Virus record (IMG/VR): IMGVR_UViG_2859783438_000007
Reading direction: 5' to 3' (one strand)
Origin: a virus
Lineage: Duplodnaviria; Heunggongvirae; Uroviricota; Caudoviricetes
DNA: 10,309 nt
The notes below the pieces were generated by a model that was given only the letters and a program-made list of their open reading frames with translations, made no database searches and was not told the DNA's origin. Shown piece by piece: positions 1 through 10,309 of this stretch (within the stretch, counting starts at the first letter, position 1; each line of letters begins with the position of its first letter). A program made the translations under genes and the position numbers.

Positions 1-31
1 GGTAAATCCCCCTGTTGGTAATGACTCCAAC

Positions 32-253
32 TTATTGATAGTGTTTTATGTTCAGATAATGCCCGATGACTTTGTCATGCAGCTCCACCGATTTTGAGAA
101 CGACAGCGACTTCCGTCCCAGCCGTGCCAGGTGCTGCCTCAGATTCAGGTTATGCCGCTCAATTCGCTGCGTATATCGCTTGCTGATTACGTGCAGCTTT
201 CCCTTCAGGCGGGATTCATACAGCGGCCAGCCATCCGTCATCCATATCACCAC
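32..253 (-). pseudogene. insB: IS1 insB, 3' fragment (last ~73 codons), fused in frame to the B' frame over insA by the internal deletion
   Basis: The C-terminal 73 aa of ORF 32..439 (-) match the InsB C-terminus. The N-terminal 62 aa are the alternative (B') frame across insA. The frameshift window and the InsB catalytic N-terminal region are deleted. Confidence 0.85.
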
Positions 254-254
254 G

Positions 255-410
255 CGTACCGGGTTGAGAAGCGGTGTAAGTGAACTGCAGTTGCCATGTT
301 TTACGGCAGTGAGAGCAGAGATAGCGCTGATGTCCGGCAGTGCTTTTGCCGTTACGCACCACCCCGTCAGTAGCTGAACAGGAGGGACAGCTGATAGAAA
401 CAGAAGCCAC
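255..410 (-). pseudogene. insA: IS1 insA, 5' portal of the gene only (first ~52 codons native, then out-of-frame junction)
   Basis: ORF 216..410 (-) begins [52 protein letters not shown], identical in character to IS1 InsA, then diverges ([12 protein letters not shown]) after the deletion junction. Confidence 0.85.
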
Positions 411-480
411 TGGAGCACCTCAAAAACACCATCATACACTAAATCAGTAAGTTGGCAGCATCACCTCATTCGTCTGTTCC

Positions 481-987
481 TTAAATCTTCCAGGAAATTT
501 CTGCATTGCCGTCAGCATCACCGGCACCTGTGAATTCAGCGTTGGTCAGCACCACGTTTTTGCCACTGACTGACGTGGACATGAATCCACCCAGCGGCAC
601 TTTGATGGATTCATCAGTGGAGACGACAACGTATACCGGATCGCCTTTTTTGATAGTGCTGGCATCAAAATCAGAACCGAGATTAACGGTCACGTAGCCA
701 CGCTTCATGGCGTCGCCCGGGAAGTTCTTGCCTGTTCCCACCTGGCGAACCATGTCCGGCTGCGACGTGGTCGGATAAGGGCGCACGTAGATCCCCTTCA
801 CCTTGTCTGCGGTATCACCATCTGCCAGCGGCACGAAAAAACCGTCATCATCGTATTTACCAGCCAGGCCATAGGCAGCGAAGGCGTTATCGGATTTAAG
901 GACCACCGGTTCGACGGTTAAGTCCTGCGGGCGAGAGACAGCCCCGGCAATGCCAACAGGCATCCGGTACAGAAATACATTATTCAT
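481..987 (-). CDS. phage head structural protein, possibly decoration-like (168 aa); family not recognised with certainty
   Basis: Complete ORF with ATG at 987 placed 3 nt after the TAA of the upstream gene, and AAGGG 7 nt upstream. It sits in the head module after the portal, F-like and scaffold/protease-like genes, where lambda-like layouts put a decoration protein before the major capsid gene. Gly/Asp/Val-rich and beta-rich in character. Function is inferred from position only. Confidence 0.45.
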   Translation of the reverse strand: MNNVFLYRMPVGIAGAVSRPQDLTVEPVVLKSDNAFAAYGLAGKYDDDGFFVPLADGDTADKVKGIYVRPYPTTSQPDMVRQVGTGKNFPGDAMKRGYVTVNLGSDFDASTIKKGDPVYVVVSTDESIKVPLGGFMSTSVSGKNVVLTNAEFTGAGDADGNAEISWKI

Positions 988-990
988 TTT

Positions 991-2211
991 TTACCCTTTA
1001 CGGTTTGCCCAGAATTCAGCGTTTTGTTTGTTCAGGGAAGCGATACTGGTCATGCCCATGTTTAGGCGCTGTGCATCGCCGGTGGTGGCGCGGGTGTTTC
1101 GCCCTTTGGCAACCTCAGACACGGCATTAAACGCCATGTCGACCGATTGTTTCGGTAATTTGCGGATATCCGCATCACCGACTATCTGGCGAACCAGCGT
1201 TTTGTCAGCAGAAGCCAGAACCTCGCGTTTGAACGCGGTCGGTTTCATCTTACGGCTCAGATCGATACCCGGAACGATAACTTCGGCACGCCAGGCTGAG
1301 TCACCAGTAATCGTGGTTTCCTCTTCATCGTCCTCGCCGTCACCGGTCGGATTATCGTCAGGCTTATTATCGTTATCGCCCGTGGCATTTCTTTCCAGCT
1401 TAGCCAGCAGGGCTTTCAGTAATGTTTTGAGGTCATCATCACTGTCGCCGGTTGGATCTCCGCCCATCTCTGGTGCTTTGTCCGGTAGTGGTTGCTGCGG
1501 GGACAGGTTGATGTTGAGATTAACGCCCTGCGGCAAATCCCCCTCATCTCCTGTAACCGATGCGGGAGCCGACTCCACCAGTTCGTTCATGGTGTCGGCA
1601 TCTCCTGTCTTGATGGCCGCACGCATGCGGTTCCACCAGTTTTTCTTTTGATTTGCCATTGTGTCTCTGTCTCCAATTGCACAACGATTTCCGGCTCTGC
1701 CTTTAGGGACAAGAGCCACATGGTTTCCGGTAATATCGACCTGCTCGGCTTTACCTGGCTCGGTCTGCTCGTACTCCGCGTCATAGCCGCACGACACTTC
1801 GCGCAGGCCATCTTCGATAAGCTGAATGGCGCTTTCGTCTTTGACGATAAGGTCAGCCAGCATCAAATCAGACTGCTCACCCGTCCCGCGCCGGACATTC
1901 TGGAGGTGCCCGACAGCAAGCTCTTTCCAGTTCTCGGGATTTACCAGCCGCACATTCCCGTTTTCATCTTCAGGATGCAGGATCGTGATGCTCATCCCTT
2001 CGAATGAGGCAAGCGTGGCCGGATGGAATACCTGCTCAGGAGAACGCGTGACGACTATTTCACCGAACTTATCGGGTTTCAGTTTTGGCAGGTCATCAGC
2101 ACCATAGAGCTGCTTACCTGTTCGTCCTATCGGCACGTCTTTGCACAGCAACGAGCCGTCAGCCAGGCGGTATCGGGTTTCCCCGAGCCTGGTCTCAAAA
2201 AAGTATTTCAT
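991..2211 (-). CDS. phage head-assembly protein (406 aa): N-terminal domain resembling DUF2213/XkdF-type putative prohead protease or scaffold, a central acidic TGD-repeat linker, and a C-terminal domain
   Basis: Complete ORF with ATG at 2211, 3 nt after the TAA of the F-like gene. It lies between the head-morphogenesis and small structural genes, as XkdF lies between portal and capsid in PBSX-type modules. Residues ~204-306 are highly acidic with a recurring T-G-D motif. Family assignment is from memory and unverified. Confidence 0.5.
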   Translation of the reverse strand: MKYFFETRLGETRYRLADGSLLCKDVPIGRTGKQLYGADDLPKLKPDKFGEIVVTRSPEQVFHPATLASFEGMSITILHPEDENGNVRLVNPENWKELAVGHLQNVRRGTGEQSDLMLADLIVKDESAIQLIEDGLREVSCGYDAEYEQTEPGKAEQVDITGNHVALVPKGRAGNRCAIGDRDTMANQKKNWWNRMRAAIKTGDADTMNELVESAPASVTGDEGDLPQGVNLNINLSPQQPLPDKAPEMGGDPTGDSDDDLKTLLKALLAKLERNATGDNDNKPDDNPTGDGEDDEEETTITGDSAWRAEVIVPGIDLSRKMKPTAFKREVLASADKTLVRQIVGDADIRKLPKQSVDMAFNAVSEVAKGRNTRATTGDAQRLNMGMTSIASLNKQNAEFWANRKG

Positions 2212-2214
2212 GGG

Positions 2215-2997
2215 TTATGCTGCCCTTTTCATTGCGAATGGAACGCGAACAAACACGATCTCTTTATAGCAGCGGCAGTTTGGCAGCTCGCCCGCGTGGC
2301 CGGTCATGCCGTCCAAAGTTGGAGGTGAATCCCAGCGGACGAATTTACCTTTCATGTGATCGTGGGAATCTCGGACATCGCCATCATCGGCTGTACGCCA
2401 AATATAACCATCCGAGCCAATAGCTATCGCTCGGGCCATATCCAGCGCGCCCGTTGCTCTTCCCAGTTCCGTTCGGGCAATCAGATCGGCCCTAGACTTA
2501 GCAACATCGCCGGTAGATGCAATCTCTTTAGCAAACTGCTCCGCCCGACCACCGGTGACAACAGCCTCTATCGCTTTGTTCTGGATGTCGTACACCCTGT
2601 CTGCGGCCTCGAGAGGCAGAGATTTGATGTACTTGACCTGTTCGGCGATGATGGATTGCATCACCTGGCCCACAGGAGCGCTTTCCACAAGATTGCGGAG
2701 CTCGCGACTGATGTTCTTGCTGTGTTGCCGCCAAACTTTCTCGTTCTGCCGGGTTAGGTCCGCAGTAAAGTTTTCCGCGACCTTTGTCGCCCAGGGGGTG
2801 ATGATTTCACTGTAACGCTCCAGCGCCGCAATAATTTCCGTGATACTGTCATTTGAACCATCGTAGCGACCATTTACGATGTCTCCGACCGCCCTCGCTA
2901 TCCTGCGTAGGCTGGTTCGATACCGGATTTCCGCCTGACGGCTCCTGCGGTTCGTCATCAGGTTCGCCGATGCCGGGCGGCGCTTCATCTTCGGCAT
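2215..2997 (-). CDS. phage head morphogenesis protein, Mu F / SPP1 gp7 family (260 aa)
   Basis: C-terminal region has the character of the Phage_Mu_F domain (…ADLIARTELGRATG…YIWRTADDGDVRDSHDHMKGKFVRWD…LPNCRCYKEIV…). ATG at 2997 has GAGGA 8 nt upstream; alternative ATGs lie at 2988 and 2958. The 5' end overlaps the portal 3' end by 149 nt in another frame. Confidence 0.8.
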   Translation of the reverse strand: MPKMKRRPASANLMTNRRSRQAEIRYRTSLRRIARAVGDIVNGRYDGSNDSITEIIAALERYSEIITPWATKVAENFTADLTRQNEKVWRQHSKNISRELRNLVESAPVGQVMQSIIAEQVKYIKSLPLEAADRVYDIQNKAIEAVVTGGRAEQFAKEIASTGDVAKSRADLIARTELGRATGALDMARAIAIGSDGYIWRTADDGDVRDSHDHMKGKFVRWDSPPTLDGMTGHAGELPNCRCYKEIVFVRVPFAMKRAA

Positions 2998-4315
2998 TCT
3001 CGATGTCCTCGTCGGTAATGGATGCCCCGATGCCGGTTACGTCAGAATTTTCTCGCAAATCAGTCATAGCGGCTTTCAGTGTCATCAGACCATCACCCAG
3101 CGCCGTACTGATTGCGTTGGTGGTGTTTAACGCCACCGTTGAGCGATCGACATCAGACATTTGCCAGAGCGGGTTAAACTCAAACGTGAAATCGTCCGGC
3201 AGCGGCTTGCCAAGTTCCGAACGATGCATGATGTCCAGTATCCGCCGCACCGGAAGACGTAAACGCCTCTCCTGCAACGAACTGATGCGATCGTAATAGT
3301 TGGCAAGGTCTGCATCACCGGTAGAAAATCCTTTCGGGGACTGTCCGAACAACCGCACCAGTGGGATACCAACAGCGCCACTAATCTGTTCTACAAACTG
3401 CGAAAGGATGTCATCCAGACCACTGAAGCTGTACTGATGGGTTTCAAACTTATCCCGCGAGTCCATGAGCGTCATGCCTTCATTACTCTGGAACTGTCGA
3501 ATCAGGTCGATATTCTTCAGCAACGCTTCATACGCAGGACCACCAAGTGCGATAAGCTCGCGTAGCTTCTCCACGCTGTAGGTACGCAAATGCGCCTTGT
3601 AGACCAGCTGCGCCGCGCCGACAGTAGCGCTGTCGAACGCGGTAAGACGATCCCAGATACGCTCTACAACCGACATTCCCCATTCGTTCTCGGTCATCTT
3701 CTGCTGAAATGGCAACGTGACGCCATCAAAGCGAATCAGGCGACTGTGATGAATGCGCCAGGCAGGAATTCCCGTTGCTGTGGTCACCACATCGTAAAAC
3801 TCAGGTTTACCCAGGTCCGGCCCCATATCTTTAATGCGGCGGGTCAGTGCCGGGTCGACCATCCAGCGGTCGAGCGGGAGAATCCCCTTAAACTTGCCCT
3901 TACCGATGGTTTCGGGTCGCAGCGGGGTCATTGGTGCCTACCCCTCAATCATGATGAAACCCACCGCGCCGCCGTAGAGGCGCGACCATTTCAGCACGTC
4001 ATTCAGCGCATCCCAGATTTGCAACTCATCCAGTTGTGATTCGAGAATGCCACGATCTTTTGCATCAATTTCCGAAGTGATGCGAATGCCTTTGCGGGTC
4101 ATATCATCCGGGATAGCATCGACTGCTTCGCCGATGATCTAGGATGAACGATAGGACCATTCCACCAGCATGCGGTTACGACTGGTGAAATTAGCCCGGT
4201 AGGTGGATGCTGAGTGCTGGTTAGGTGTCTGCATCCCTACGCGGGCAATAAAATTCTCATAACCATCAGCTGTGGCCTGCACAGTTCGCCGCAGGGCTTG
4301 TTTGTTTCGTGCCAT
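2849..4315 (-). pseudogene. phage portal protein gene, ~489-codon frame interrupted by two in-frame TAG codons (plus-strand coordinates 4139-4141 and 3938-3940)
   Basis: ATG at 4315-4313 overlaps the TerL TGA stop (TGATG). My manual translation of the minus strand gives MARNKQALRRTVQATADGYENFIARVGMQTPNQHSASTYRANFTSRNRMLVEWSYRSS-TAG-IIGEAVDAIPDDMTRKGIRITSEIDAKDRGILESQLDELQIWDALNDVLKWSRLYGGAVGFIMIEG-TAG-APMTPLRPETIGKG…, continuing into ORF 2849..3931 in the same frame (4315-3931 = 384 = 128 codons). The 128 codons upstream of 3931 contain no TAA or TGA. Size, position after TerL and the acidic C-terminal tail fit a portal. Confidence 0.7.
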
Positions 4316-5718
4316 CAGGCCTGTCTCCCCAGCTGTTCCCAGATATCCAGCGATGTATCGATTGGCGCGAAGGCCATAATGAATGCATCAGCAACGTTTG
4401 GTGACGGTATCTCGCGTTTTGCGAGGTCTTTTTTACTTTCGACCATCACACGTCCGTTACGGTCGAAATCACGATGAGGTGTTGTCAGTTCCAGTTTCAG
4501 CTTTTCAAGCAACGGACAACGAGAATCTATGCTGATCAGCTCATCCACAGGATACTGTTCTCCGTTGTTAATGGCGTTAAACGTATTTCTGAAACGGTCA
4601 GCCACCAGCCACCATGCCTGAGCCTTAAGATTTGCGAAAAAGTCTTTGTTGGGGATGCCGTTGTACTCGTCATCTGGCTCATGCACACCAGCACCGGCGT
4701 TAAACCTCTGGTAATTCACACGTCGCGCGTATGCGTTCTCGCTCTTCCGGTCAGCGTTAATTTCAGAGAATTTAGCACCGGCAGACGCACCAACACCGAT
4801 AGAGTCGTAAACAATATCTGCTTCACGCTCCAGCGCCGCCTGATAAGTACGCTGGCAGCTCTTCAGTAATTCATCTTCTTTGGCCTTCCATTCGTCGGCC
4901 CAGAAAACAACGGATCCGTGACGGTAAACGTTAGCGCACTTATCTGTACCACTGTCAGCCACGTCAAAGCCAATACGCTTTCTTCCACTGGGTTCGAAAT
5001 TTAACGTTTTGTGCGCATCCACTGCGGCTTCTATCCAAGACAGTTTGATGATTGCCGCATCATCATCAGACTCCGGAACGCCCTCATACACATGTTTAAA
5101 ACCATCCGGATCACGGCGTCGCGCCGCGTCGATAACCTTAAGCATGGTGTCAGACAGAAACGGATTTTCGTCATAGTTAATTTTGCGGATGAGAGTGCCT
5201 TCGGGCGGATCAACAACGAAGTTGCGCCAGACGAAATCAGTAACAAGTCCGGGGTTGAATATGAACCAGCATTCCGAACCCTCTTTACGGATCGTTGGCT
5301 CCAGAATTTTCCACTGGTATTCCGTCAGTGCGTGGGCTTCTTCCAGCCACAACACATCGATCCCCTCCAGTGACTTAATTTCTTCGATGTTGCGCCATAA
5401 TCCATAAAAAACAAATTCCGAGCCAGTAACCCGGTTAATGATTTTGTTGTTCAGAATACGGAAACGGTGCCGCAGACCAAACCTGTCTATCTGAATTTTG
5501 AGCAGGGTATACACCGACTCTTCGATTTTATTCTGGATCTGACGGGCACAACAAAAACGCAGGGTGTATTTATTCGACAGAAATATGGCAATGCCAGCGG
5601 CATCCCATGATTTTGACGATGACCGACCACCATAAAGCACTTTGTTACGTGCCCGCATAGTCCAGAAACTACGTAAAGCCGGATTCAGCGTCGGTTTGGA
5701 TGTCAGAGTAGAAGTCAT
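4315..5718 (-). CDS. phage terminase large subunit, PBSX-like family
   Basis: N-terminal block …LNPALRSFWTMRARNKVLYGGRSSSKSWDAAG… matches the deviant Walker-A region typical of PBSX-type large terminases; ~467 aa with an acidic C-terminal nuclease-like region. I chose ATG 5718 (MTSTLTSKPTLNPALR…, GGAGAG ~10 nt upstream). The ORF-track start at 5826 is a TTG; ATGs at 5757, 5745, 5742 and 5736 are alternatives. Confidence 0.85.
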   Translation of the reverse strand: MTSTLTSKPTLNPALRSFWTMRARNKVLYGGRSSSKSWDAAGIAIFLSNKYTLRFCCARQIQNKIEESVYTLLKIQIDRFGLRHRFRILNNKIINRVTGSEFVFYGLWRNIEEIKSLEGIDVLWLEEAHALTEYQWKILEPTIRKEGSECWFIFNPGLVTDFVWRNFVVDPPEGTLIRKINYDENPFLSDTMLKVIDAARRRDPDGFKHVYEGVPESDDDAAIIKLSWIEAAVDAHKTLNFEPSGRKRIGFDVADSGTDKCANVYRHGSVVFWADEWKAKEDELLKSCQRTYQAALEREADIVYDSIGVGASAGAKFSEINADRKSENAYARRVNYQRFNAGAGVHEPDDEYNGIPNKDFFANLKAQAWWLVADRFRNTFNAINNGEQYPVDELISIDSRCPLLEKLKLELTTPHRDFDRNGRVMVESKKDLAKREIPSPNVADAFIMAFAPIDTSLDIWEQLGRQA

Positions 5719-6433
5719 TGAGGTCACGCTCTCCATTGCCATCATCAATACCTGCATCACGGCGAAGACGATCAGCCTCCAGAGACACCTTATCAGTGGC
5801 GGCCTTGCGGTAGGCTGTATCAGCAAATATTTTTCCTACCGTCGCAAGCGTGCCAACGATGGACTCAATACGAACTGTATTGCGCATCATTGCTTTCTCG
5901 GCGGCGCTGATATTTTCAATCAGCATCTTCCTTTCCTGGTCCCCATTAGCATCTTCCAGCGACACCAACCACCGACCAATATTCTCTGCAGCGACAAGGT
6001 TGTTAGCACGAAGGCGAAATAATTCGTCCTCGAGCGTCAACGCTTTAGCGTCCTCTATCACCTCATCTTTGAGCAGAAGGCGACGGGCATAACCACCGTG
6101 TTTTAATGCCTGCTGGTTACCGGGTTGGAATGGGTTAGTCGGGGGATCGGTACGCATTCCGCGTATCGGTTTCGTATCCGGTGTAGATTCTGTTTTTAGT
6201 TGCGTACTTTTTTGTGTAAGGCCAGTAATGGCAGGCTTTCTGCTGGTACGCACTTTCCTTTTTTGCGTACCATTTTTGCAAACCTGCGTACCGCCACTGC
6301 GTGCCCAACCAAGCTTTTTGGCCCTCTTCCTGATAGCCCCTTCTGTAACGCCGTATTTCTCGCCTATATCACGGAGGCTAAGGACTCCGGCCCGGTATGC
6401 CGATTCGATGGCCTCCCAGTCCGGTTTTGCCAT
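5669..6433 (-). CDS. phage terminase small subunit (254 aa) with N-terminal helix-turn-helix
   Basis: Immediately upstream of TerL, overlapping it by ~50 nt. N-terminus MAKPDWEAIESAYRAGVLSLRDIGEKYGVTEGAIRKRAKKLGW is HTH-like, as in many small terminases. AGGAAG lies 7 nt upstream of the ATG at 6433. Stop is TAG at 5669-5671. Confidence 0.65.
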   Translation of the reverse strand: MAKPDWEAIESAYRAGVLSLRDIGEKYGVTEGAIRKRAKKLGWARSGGTQVCKNGTQKRKVRTSRKPAITGLTQKSTQLKTESTPDTKPIRGMRTDPPTNPFQPGNQQALKHGGYARRLLLKDEVIEDAKALTLEDELFRLRANNLVAAENIGRWLVSLEDANGDQERKMLIENISAAEKAMMRNTVRIESIVGTLATVGKIFADTAYRKAATDKVSLEADRLRRDAGIDDGNGERDLNDFYSDIQTDAESGFT

Positions 6434-6695
6434 GATTATGCTTCCTGTGATTTACTGTTATCGCTGCCTGTCACAATAGGTTGCTTTAATTCTTCCTCAT
6501 CACTCACTCCTGCGACGCTCCGTGGCAGGGCCCCCCACAGGAGTACCTTGTAAATGTAAGGTGTTTAAGCCTAAATTAAGTCGTATCACGGTTAAATAGC
6601 AAAGAAAAATTCACAGAAGGAAAGACATTGATGGAGTGGATAAATGCTTTGATGAACTATTTTGTACTTCATCCATATCGCCTATGTGAAGTGGC

Positions 6696-6822
6696 TGAAG
6701 TGGTCAACAAAAACTGGCCACCGAGTTAGAGTTTTTCCAGTATCGATTTTCCGATTCGTTTGGGGGTAACCCACCGTTATATTCGTGCGGTCTTAGTGCG
6801 CTGTAATATCCAACGATATAGT
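6696..6822 (-). mobile_element. IS911 right-end fragment, 127 bp, inverted relative to the complete IS911 at 8026-9274
   Basis: 6696-6822 is the exact reverse complement of 9148-9274 (…ctatatcgttggatattacagcgcactaagaccgcacgaatataacggtgggttacccccaaacgaatcggaaaatcgatactggaaaaactctaactcggtggccagtttttgttgaccacttca). The length equals the 127-bp overlap repeat seen at the first N gap. Confidence 0.85.
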
Positions 6823-7214
6823 AAGCTTAGTCAGCCGTTGTCTCCGGGTGTCGCGTGCGCAGTTGCACGTCATTCTCAGACGAACCGATGACTGGATGGA
6901 TGGCCGCCGCAGTCGTCACACTGATGATACGGATGTGCTTCTCCGTATACACCATGTTATCGGAGAGCTGCCCACGTATGGTTATCGTCGGGTATGGGCG
7001 CTGCTTCGCAGACAGGCAGAACTTGATGGTATGCCTGCGATCAATGCCAAACGTGTTTACCGGATCATGCGCCAGAATGCGCTGTTGCTTGAGCGAAAAC
7101 CTGCTGTACCGCCATCGAAACGGGCACATACAGGCAGAGTGGCTGTGAAAGAAAGTAATCAGCGATGGTGCTCTGACGGGTTCGAGTTCCGCTGTGATAA
7201 CGGAGAAAAACTGC

Positions 7215-7314
7215 NNNNNNNNNNNNNNNNNNNNNNNNNNNNNNNNNNNNNNNNNNNNNNNNNNNNNNNNNNNNNNNNNNNNNNNNNNNNNNNNNNNNNN
7301 NNNNNNNNNNNNNN
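7215..7314. other. assembly gap (100 N)
   Basis: Run of exactly 100 N, flanked by a perfect 127-bp direct repeat. Confidence 0.99.
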
Positions 7315-7441
7315 CTTGAGCGAAAACCTGCTGTACCGCCATCGAAACGGGCACATACAGGCAGAGTGGCTGTGAAAGAAAGTAATCAGCGATGGTGCTC
7401 TGACGGGTTCGAGTTCCGCTGTGATAACGGAGAAAAACTGC
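7315..7441. repeat. 127-bp perfect direct duplicate of 7088-7214 across the N gap (contig-end overlap artefact, not a biological repeat)
   Basis: 7088-7214 (cttgagcgaaaacctgctgtaccgcc…cggagaaaaactgc) is identical to 7315-7441. 127 is a common maximum k-mer size in de Bruijn assemblers. Confidence 0.85.
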
Positions 7442-7925
7442 GAGTCACGTTCGCGCTGGACTGCTGTGACCGTGAGGCACTGCACTGGGCGGTCACTACG
7501 GGCGGCTTCAACAGTGAAACAGTACAGGACGTCATGCTGGGAGCGGTGGAACGCCGCTTCGGCAACGAGCTTCCGGCGTCTCCAGTAGAGTGGCTGACGG
7601 ATAATGGTTCATGCTACCGGGCTAATGAAACACGGCAGTTTGCCCGGATGTTGGGGCTTGAACCGAAGAGCACGGCGGTGCGGAGTCCGGAGAGTAACGG
7701 CATAGCAGAGAGCTTCGTGAAAACGATAAAGCGTGACTACATCAGTGTCATGCCCAAACCAGACGGGTTAACGGCAGCAAAGAACCTTGCAGAGGCGTTC
7801 GAGCATTATAACGAATGGCATCCGCATAGTGCACTGGGTTATCGCTCGCCACGGGAATATCTACGGCAGCAAGCCAGTAATGGGTTAAGTGATAACAGGT
7901 GTCTGGAAATATAGGGGCAAATCCA

Positions 7926-8025
7926 NNNNNNNNNNNNNNNNNNNNNNNNNNNNNNNNNNNNNNNNNNNNNNNNNNNNNNNNNNNNNNNNNNNNNNNNNNN
8001 NNNNNNNNNNNNNNNNNNNNNNNNN
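7926..8025. other. assembly gap (100 N) between the IS2 right end and the IS911 left end
   Basis: Run of exactly 100 N; no flanking duplicate. Both flanks are IS termini. Confidence 0.99.
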
Positions 8026-8097: not shown

Positions 8098-9266
<1,169 letters not shown>

Positions 9267-9274
9267 CCACTTCA

Positions 9275-9706: not shown

Positions 9707-10309
9707 ATGGGAAAAAATCAGGAAGAAAGGAAAACTCCCGTCATTGTGGTGAAAAAACGTCGTACTTTTTCGCCACCGTCCTTATCCGAAAAAACAGATA
9801 TTATCGCACCTGTATTTACTGAACAGACGGCAGAATCAGCCCCCGCCGGAATAAATTCATCTGCCGTCGAAACACATATCCCCGAAGCGCCAGCCAGGAA
9901 GAAGAAAAAGAAAAGACACCGTTTTCCACGTCCCTCCCACTGGACCCGTGAGTATACTCACGAGTGCGTGGAAAAAATAAAGGCCCTGTTTCCTCATCTT
10001 CGTGCTGAAGGTGGTGGATTTATTCCCCTGAAAATTGGCATAAACAATGATATATCGGCATTTCTGGCAGAACACCCGGAGACAGAACTGACCATGGACG
10101 AATGGCTCTGTGCAGTGTCCTGCATCACATCCCGCCGCGTATATCTGCAGCGGACAGCTGTCGCCGGCGTCCCACGTTATGGCCTGGATGGTCACCCCAA
10201 AGGGCAGGTCTCAGACTCTGAAGCACAGAGTGCCGGTCGCAGACTGGCGACATTAGAACAAAAGTGGCTCAGGATGCAGGCACAGCAGGAGAATATTTCT
10301 GGGCAATAA
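9707..10309 (+). CDS. ProQ/FinO-family RNA-binding protein (FinO-like, 200 aa): basic disordered N-terminus plus ProQ/FinO domain
   Basis: …IKALFPHLRAEGGGFIPLKIGINNDISAFLAEHPETELTMDEWLCAVSCITSRRVYLQRTAVAGVPRYGLDGHPKGQVSDSEAQSAGRRL… aligns by eye with the E. coli ProQ N-terminal domain (…[22 protein letters not shown]…[34 protein letters not shown]). The N-terminus (MGKNQEERKTPVIVVKKRR…KKKKKRHRFPR) resembles the basic N-terminus of F-plasmid FinO. Good SD; TAA stop at the window end. Confidence 0.85.
   Translation: MGKNQEERKTPVIVVKKRRTFSPPSLSEKTDIIAPVFTEQTAESAPAGINSSAVETHIPEAPARKKKKKRHRFPRPSHWTREYTHECVEKIKALFPHLRAEGGGFIPLKIGINNDISAFLAEHPETELTMDEWLCAVSCITSRRVYLQRTAVAGVPRYGLDGHPKGQVSDSEAQSAGRRLATLEQKWLRMQAQQENISGQ

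Follow-up and report, generated by a model that had tools for sequence, protein, structure and literature searches.

De Bruijn graph assemblers represent contigs as the edges of a graph, and edges that meet at a vertex share the k-mer of that vertex, so neighbouring contigs overlap by exactly k bases. For SPAdes, overlaps of 127 bp have been described as artefacts of the assembler, in the form of 127-bp "direct terminal repeats" on circular phage and plasmid contigs (PMC5923482; PMC9331655). In those cases the exact repeat equals the final k, has no biological meaning and is trimmed by removing one copy. A second described behaviour is that of scaffolders such as MeDuSa and Multi-CSAR, which order contigs on reference genomes and separate them by exactly 100 Ns whatever the true distance, as stated for Multi-CSAR (PMC9252826). 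The locus that we describe here lies in a window of 10,309 nucleotides, the whole stretch of DNA analysed, and resembles both. It carries an exact 127-bp repeat, as the SPAdes terminal overlaps do, but here the two copies would sit on two contigs joined with 100 N, inside a "complete chromosome" record rather than at contig ends. Likewise, both gaps in the window are of 100 N, as a fixed-gap scaffolder would leave them, but the gap at 7215-7314 would have a negative true distance of -127 bp.

We found that positions 7088-7214 and 7315-7441 were identical at 127 of 127 bases, both by direct comparison and in a self-BLAST of the window, and that the N run between them (7215-7314) was exactly 100 N long. 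The 127 bp were the sole suffix-to-prefix overlap greater than 1 bp around this gap. Because the 127-mer is of ordinary complexity (52% GC, normal complexity), a chance match is excluded; with a probability of about 4^-127, chance origin is effectively impossible. The window was identical to part of a 20.6-kb stretch of CP029794.1 (4,544,278 bp; GCA_002073875.2), a record of Shigella sonnei 4303, with window position 1 at 3,690,063 and the gap at 3,697,277-3,697,376 of that record. The assembly was reached by looking up the 5'-partial InsD product encoded just after the Ns, and its accession links the record to the publication. Masking by the data provider was considered as a source of the Ns and was ruled out, as the GenBank record CP029794.1 carries the same Ns.

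The S. sonnei 4303 assembly has a published account. Ion Torrent PGM reads from a single-end library (PRJNA361576) were assembled de novo with SPAdes 3.1 (PMC6201595), using the setting -k 21,33,55,77,99,127 (PMC6201595 supplement). Mauve then served to reorder the contigs on S. sonnei 53G and the MeDuSa web server to scaffold them, and the resulting assembly is described as "including chromosomal and plasmid DNA" (PMC6201595). MeDuSa places contigs by mapping to references, not by adjacency in the graph (PMC6201595 supplement). With a published final k of 127, the length of the repeat therefore equals the documented final k-mer size. The spacer of 100 N is presumably the MeDuSa default; we found no statement to this effect in the literature searched, MeDuSa's own paper lying outside that search.

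We conclude that the succession of 127 bp, 100 N and 127 bp is almost certainly a scaffolding artefact and not biology. At this gap we observed a suffix equal to a prefix, a length equal to the final k, a fixed gap together with a documented scaffolding step, a collapsed form that matches known sequence, and a contig end that recurs in other assemblies (the last two are described below). Since the overlap is perfect and of length k, we infer that the contig to the left of the gap (contig A) and the contig to its right (contig B) would share a vertex in the 4303 graph. Under this explanation, contig A would run from chromosomal prophage DNA into a 5'-truncated IS2 and halt at the vertex formed by IS2 positions 721-847, and contig B, of 611 bp, would open with the same vertex and end at the right end of IS2. 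MeDuSa would then have ordered the contigs on S. sonnei references and added its fixed 100-N spacer, with the overlap neither checked nor trimmed, and the true sequence would be the window minus 227 bp, an ordinary IS2 allele with the InsD frame intact from residue 14. This is an already known kind of error, a SPAdes k-mer overlap that a reference scaffolder with fixed gaps leaves standing in its output. A point against the artefact reading is that only one of the two N gaps in the 20.6-kb stretch of CP029794.1 shows an overlap. The initial annotation had reported the identical 127 bp on both sides of the N run and read them as contigs overlapping by k=127 and joined with a placeholder. Its coordinates proved exact, and the documented final k, the MeDuSa step and the 100-N gaps bear out its interpretation. 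The features of the locus are collected in Table 1.

Table 1. Features around the two N gaps of the window, with window coordinates.
Feature	Position	Strand	Description
IS911 right-end remnant, exactly 127 bp	6696-6822	-	Reverse complement of 9148-9274; joined without Ns to IS2 position ~453
5'-truncated IS2	6820-7925	+	IS2 453-1331 after removing 227 bp; InsD/TnpB residues 14-301
Contig A end (putative shared k-mer vertex)	7088-7214	+	IS2 positions 721-847; identical to 7315-7441; ungapped alignment to complete IS2 copies
Scaffolder placeholder, 100 N, probably with no sequence behind it	7215-7314	.	Predicted true distance -127 bp; published pipeline (PMC6201595)
Contig B start, duplicate of the putative k-mer vertex	7315-7441	+	Draft contigs begin at the same base
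Contig B, 611 bp	7315-7925	+	IS2 positions 721-1331; ends exactly at IS2 right terminus GGGGCAAATCCA
Second scaffolder gap, 100 N	7926-8025	.	No flanking overlap; left edge is the IS2 right terminus, right edge the first base of the IS911 IRL
IS911, essentially full-length, start of contig C	8026-9274	+	1249 bp, 99.9-100% to annotated IS911 copies, including those of the finished loci; IS3-family ORFs

To examine the sequence expected after repair, we removed the 100 N and one copy of the repeat (227 bp in all), which left a collapsed sequence of 879 bp made of 6820-7214 and 7442-7925. The collapsed sequence was found as a single piece with 100% identity in many complete E. coli genomes, and it aligned without any gap to positions 453-1331 of complete IS2 copies, including Shigella IS2. 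It holds one open frame of 288 codons up to the native InsD stop (...CLEI*). In comparison, the frame was broken by stops or frame changes both in the version as it stands and in a version with the repeat in tandem and no Ns. The InsD product scored 681 bits against the NCBIfam model NF006918 for IS2 TnpB (cut-off 597), as one uninterrupted match to model positions 14-301 of 301. Two ORFs cross the N run, 6848-7375 on the plus strand and 6827-7354 on the minus strand; both hold runs of X and are artefacts.

With these results, the check proposed by the initial annotation, merging the overlap and comparing it with IS2, gave a continuous InsD frame and an ungapped alignment to complete IS2 copies. 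Its expectation that the locus is probably free of a gap agrees with the single 100% piece in complete E. coli genomes, and its view that the X-bearing ORFs over the gap are artefactual agrees with the X runs in both ORFs and the continuity of the collapsed frame. Its further claim, that removing 227 bp restores insD, held with one refinement: one open frame is indeed restored, and that frame covers InsD residues 14-301 only, the IS2 copy being 5'-truncated. The element belongs to IS2, of the IS3 family, by its TnpB score above the curated cut-off and by its right terminus GGGGCAAATCCA, which is co-terminal with annotated IS2 copies. It shares with IS2 the right terminus, the InsD/TnpB coding region and the DDE integrase core domain, and is 100% identical to E. 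coli copies, but it comprises positions 453-1331 alone, so that the left inverted repeat, insC and the frameshift site that a functional IS2 would have are absent. Upstream of 6820 lies the end of an IS911 and not IS2. The underlying DNA is an ordinary IS2 allele, but in a dead, 5'-truncated copy.

The surroundings of the gap were compared with finished genomes. Window positions 254-6686 form a defective-prophage block that encodes a cement protein, a DUF2213 protein, a Mu F-like protein, a portal fragment and the large and small terminase. The morphogenesis genes, at 466-6686, are bounded by IS1 and IS911, the small-terminase-like protein is 254 aa long, and in related genomes the portal gene is called as three separate pieces. 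Over 254-6686, the window showed 99.97-100% identity to ten finished chromosomes, each of 4.8-5.0 Mb. After the prophage block, these chromosomes carry, in turn, a VTT/DedA-like gene, lysis genes, a complete IS2, in the majority an IS110-family element, and finally IS911. The order and orientation from IS2 to IS911 are the same as those of the pieces in the window, which is the pattern expected if reference mapping placed the contigs.

The second N run, at 7926-8025, had no part in the initial annotation. Because no overlap flanks this gap, the adjacency across it is without support in the sequence and comes from the reference genomes only. Finished relatives have 0.75-2.2 kb between IS2 and IS911, occupied by a holin remnant with or without the IS110-family element. 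The element after the gap was first read as IS600, and alignment to annotated records identified it as IS911. From 9275 onward (to 10309), the window was 100% identical to IncI1/B/O conjugative plasmids. These carry an uninterrupted yagA at the point where IS911 cuts the gene in the window, and their ProQ/FinO gene corresponds to window positions 9707-10309. Downstream of the window, at 12000-20600 of the 20.6-kb stretch, CP029794.1 continues with ParE/RelB and then with plasmid repA. The plasmid identity, together with ParE/RelB and repA, therefore indicates that a plasmid contig is embedded in a record labelled as a chromosome, which agrees with the mention of plasmid DNA in the published description (PMC6201595). 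We conclude that the wider scaffold is unreliable, as it chains IncI1 plasmid DNA to chromosomal prophage DNA.

Two further joins in the window carry no Ns. In the self-BLAST, 6696-6822 also proved to be an exact inverted copy of 9148-9274, again over 127 bp, and this second repeat was likewise absent from the initial annotation. The identity of the prophage block stops at 6686 and is followed by the 9 bp TGAAGTGGC, the right end of IS911 and then IS2, with AGT common to the IS911 and IS2 ends. The 9 bp at 6687-6695 (TGAAGTGGC) match the tip of the IS911 IRL; on one side of them lies a truncated VTT/DedA-like gene and on the other the tip of the IS911 right end, so that two IS911 tips stand in tandem. 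Searches of PLSDB, complete E. coli genomes, GTDB representative genomes and metagenome contigs returned no copy of the IS911/IS2 junction at 6822/6823. The other such join lies in the IS1 at 17-465, which is without the internal 318 bp relative to both IS1 copies in the finished loci, and in which 238 bp and 211 bp are joined at 254. None of 5,426 complete E. coli genomes matched this IS1 junction contiguously, and no record was found anywhere for the 135-aa ORF that crosses it. Look-ups of the small ORFs spanning the IS1, IS911/phage, IS911/IS2 and IS911/yagA junctions likewise gave no records.

Paired-end scaffolding or gap-closing by SPAdes was considered as the source of the joins at 254 and 6822/6823 and was ruled out by the single-end library. 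Because the library was single-end, a join free of Ns should be a path in the graph backed by real 128-mers. By our estimate, a remnant of length k would arise by coincidence at roughly 1 in 200 to 1 in 1250. The join at 6822/6823 may thus be a real scar or may be an assembly chimera. We also considered the chain of prophage, IS911 remnant, IS2, IS911 and IncI1 DNA as a real, IS911-mediated plasmid cointegrate in the defective prophage, with 6822/6823 a rearrangement scar, and we judge this to be very unlikely.

We then turned to the contig boundary at 7315. In at least five independent draft assemblies, contigs of 59-80 kb have the equivalent of 7315 as their first base and show 0 mismatches to the 611 bp of contig B. 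The 5'-partial InsD product that begins at this base (window 7315-7914) occurs in 149 blocks of the assembly collection. The same start base in independent drafts therefore marks the 127-mer as a vertex at which assemblies of this lineage branch repeatedly. As contig A ends at 7214 and contig B starts at 7088, the equivalent of 7315, another sequence must share the 127-mer and differ from it at IS2 position 720 or 848. Known allele differences flanking the 127-mer, which would be predicted at 720 or 848, were ruled out as the cause in the five alleles compared: these IS2 alleles vary at positions 697, 777, 789, 823, 840, 842, 849 and onward, with no difference at 720 or 848. The branch would most likely be due to a putative second IS2 in the S. 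sonnei genome, partial or interrupted, with a junction between 720 and 721.

In the five draft contigs (positions 1-3600), the contig-B allele, recognizable by allele-specific bases such as A at window position 7443 and C at 7470, runs past the end of IS2 into a locus with an AIDA/pertactin autotransporter and a sulfatase. This continuation means that at least one copy of the contig-B allele lies elsewhere in the chromosome and not beside IS911. Contig B is probably a shared repeat edge. An alternative reading of the gap accepts the k-mer artefact and holds that contigs A and B are not adjacent, contig B being the collapsed repeat of another IS2 copy and contig A continuing differently. Consistent with it, the same 611 bp lead in five drafts to the autotransporter/sulfatase locus and not to IS911, contig B is 3-4% diverged from the IS2 by the prophage block in the ten finished relatives while the IS2 part of contig A is 98.7-100% identical to it, and MeDuSa places contigs by reference mapping rather than graph adjacency. 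We nevertheless regard this alternative as extremely unlikely, given that all k=127 paths through the vertex at 7088-7214 must exit by an edge starting with that 127-mer, that contig B is unbranched to the IS2 end, which suggests that it is the sole such edge, and that merging A with B yields a natural allele at 100% identity. Were contigs A and B indeed not adjacent, insD would nevertheless be uninterrupted and the extra 227 bp would remain an artefact.

A head-to-tail junction of the form ...GGAGAAAAACTGC followed by CTTGAGCGAAAAC... is expected from a real duplication, and we drew a 74-mer across it. This 74-mer (...AAAAACTGC joined to CTTGAGCG...) was not matched contiguously in any of 5,426 complete E. 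coli genomes. In a scan with lax thresholds, all matches listed were two 37-bp halves at the ends of one normal 127-bp stretch. Transposition of IS3-family elements produces target duplications of a few bp. The bare pattern of repeat, gap and repeat would also fit a real tandem duplication of at least 127 bp in insD, or an insertion bordered by a long duplication, with the Ns standing for real sequence that hides the junction in the window, but the probability of this is next to nil: the repeat is as long as the final k given for the assembly, InsD would break because 127 cannot be divided by 3, the junction is missing from the 5,426 complete E. coli genomes, the collapsed form matches a common allele with 100% identity, independent drafts have a contig boundary at the equivalent of 7315, and the few bp of an IS3-family target duplication are not 127.

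Taken together, the scaffolding artefact accounts for the locus, and no novel reading survives for the N gap at 7215-7314 itself. The finding has no biological importance and is a matter of data hygiene only. The supposedly complete chromosome CP029794.1 consists of SPAdes contigs built at k=127 and concatenated in the order given by reference genomes, and untrimmed overlaps in it lead to false 127-bp duplications, split genes such as insD and X-containing ORFs. Such gaps could be flagged and repaired automatically by looking for N runs of fixed length whose flanks share an exact suffix-to-prefix match of k bases. As it stands, the record is misleading for IS counts, synteny, pseudogene calls and claims of plasmid integration.
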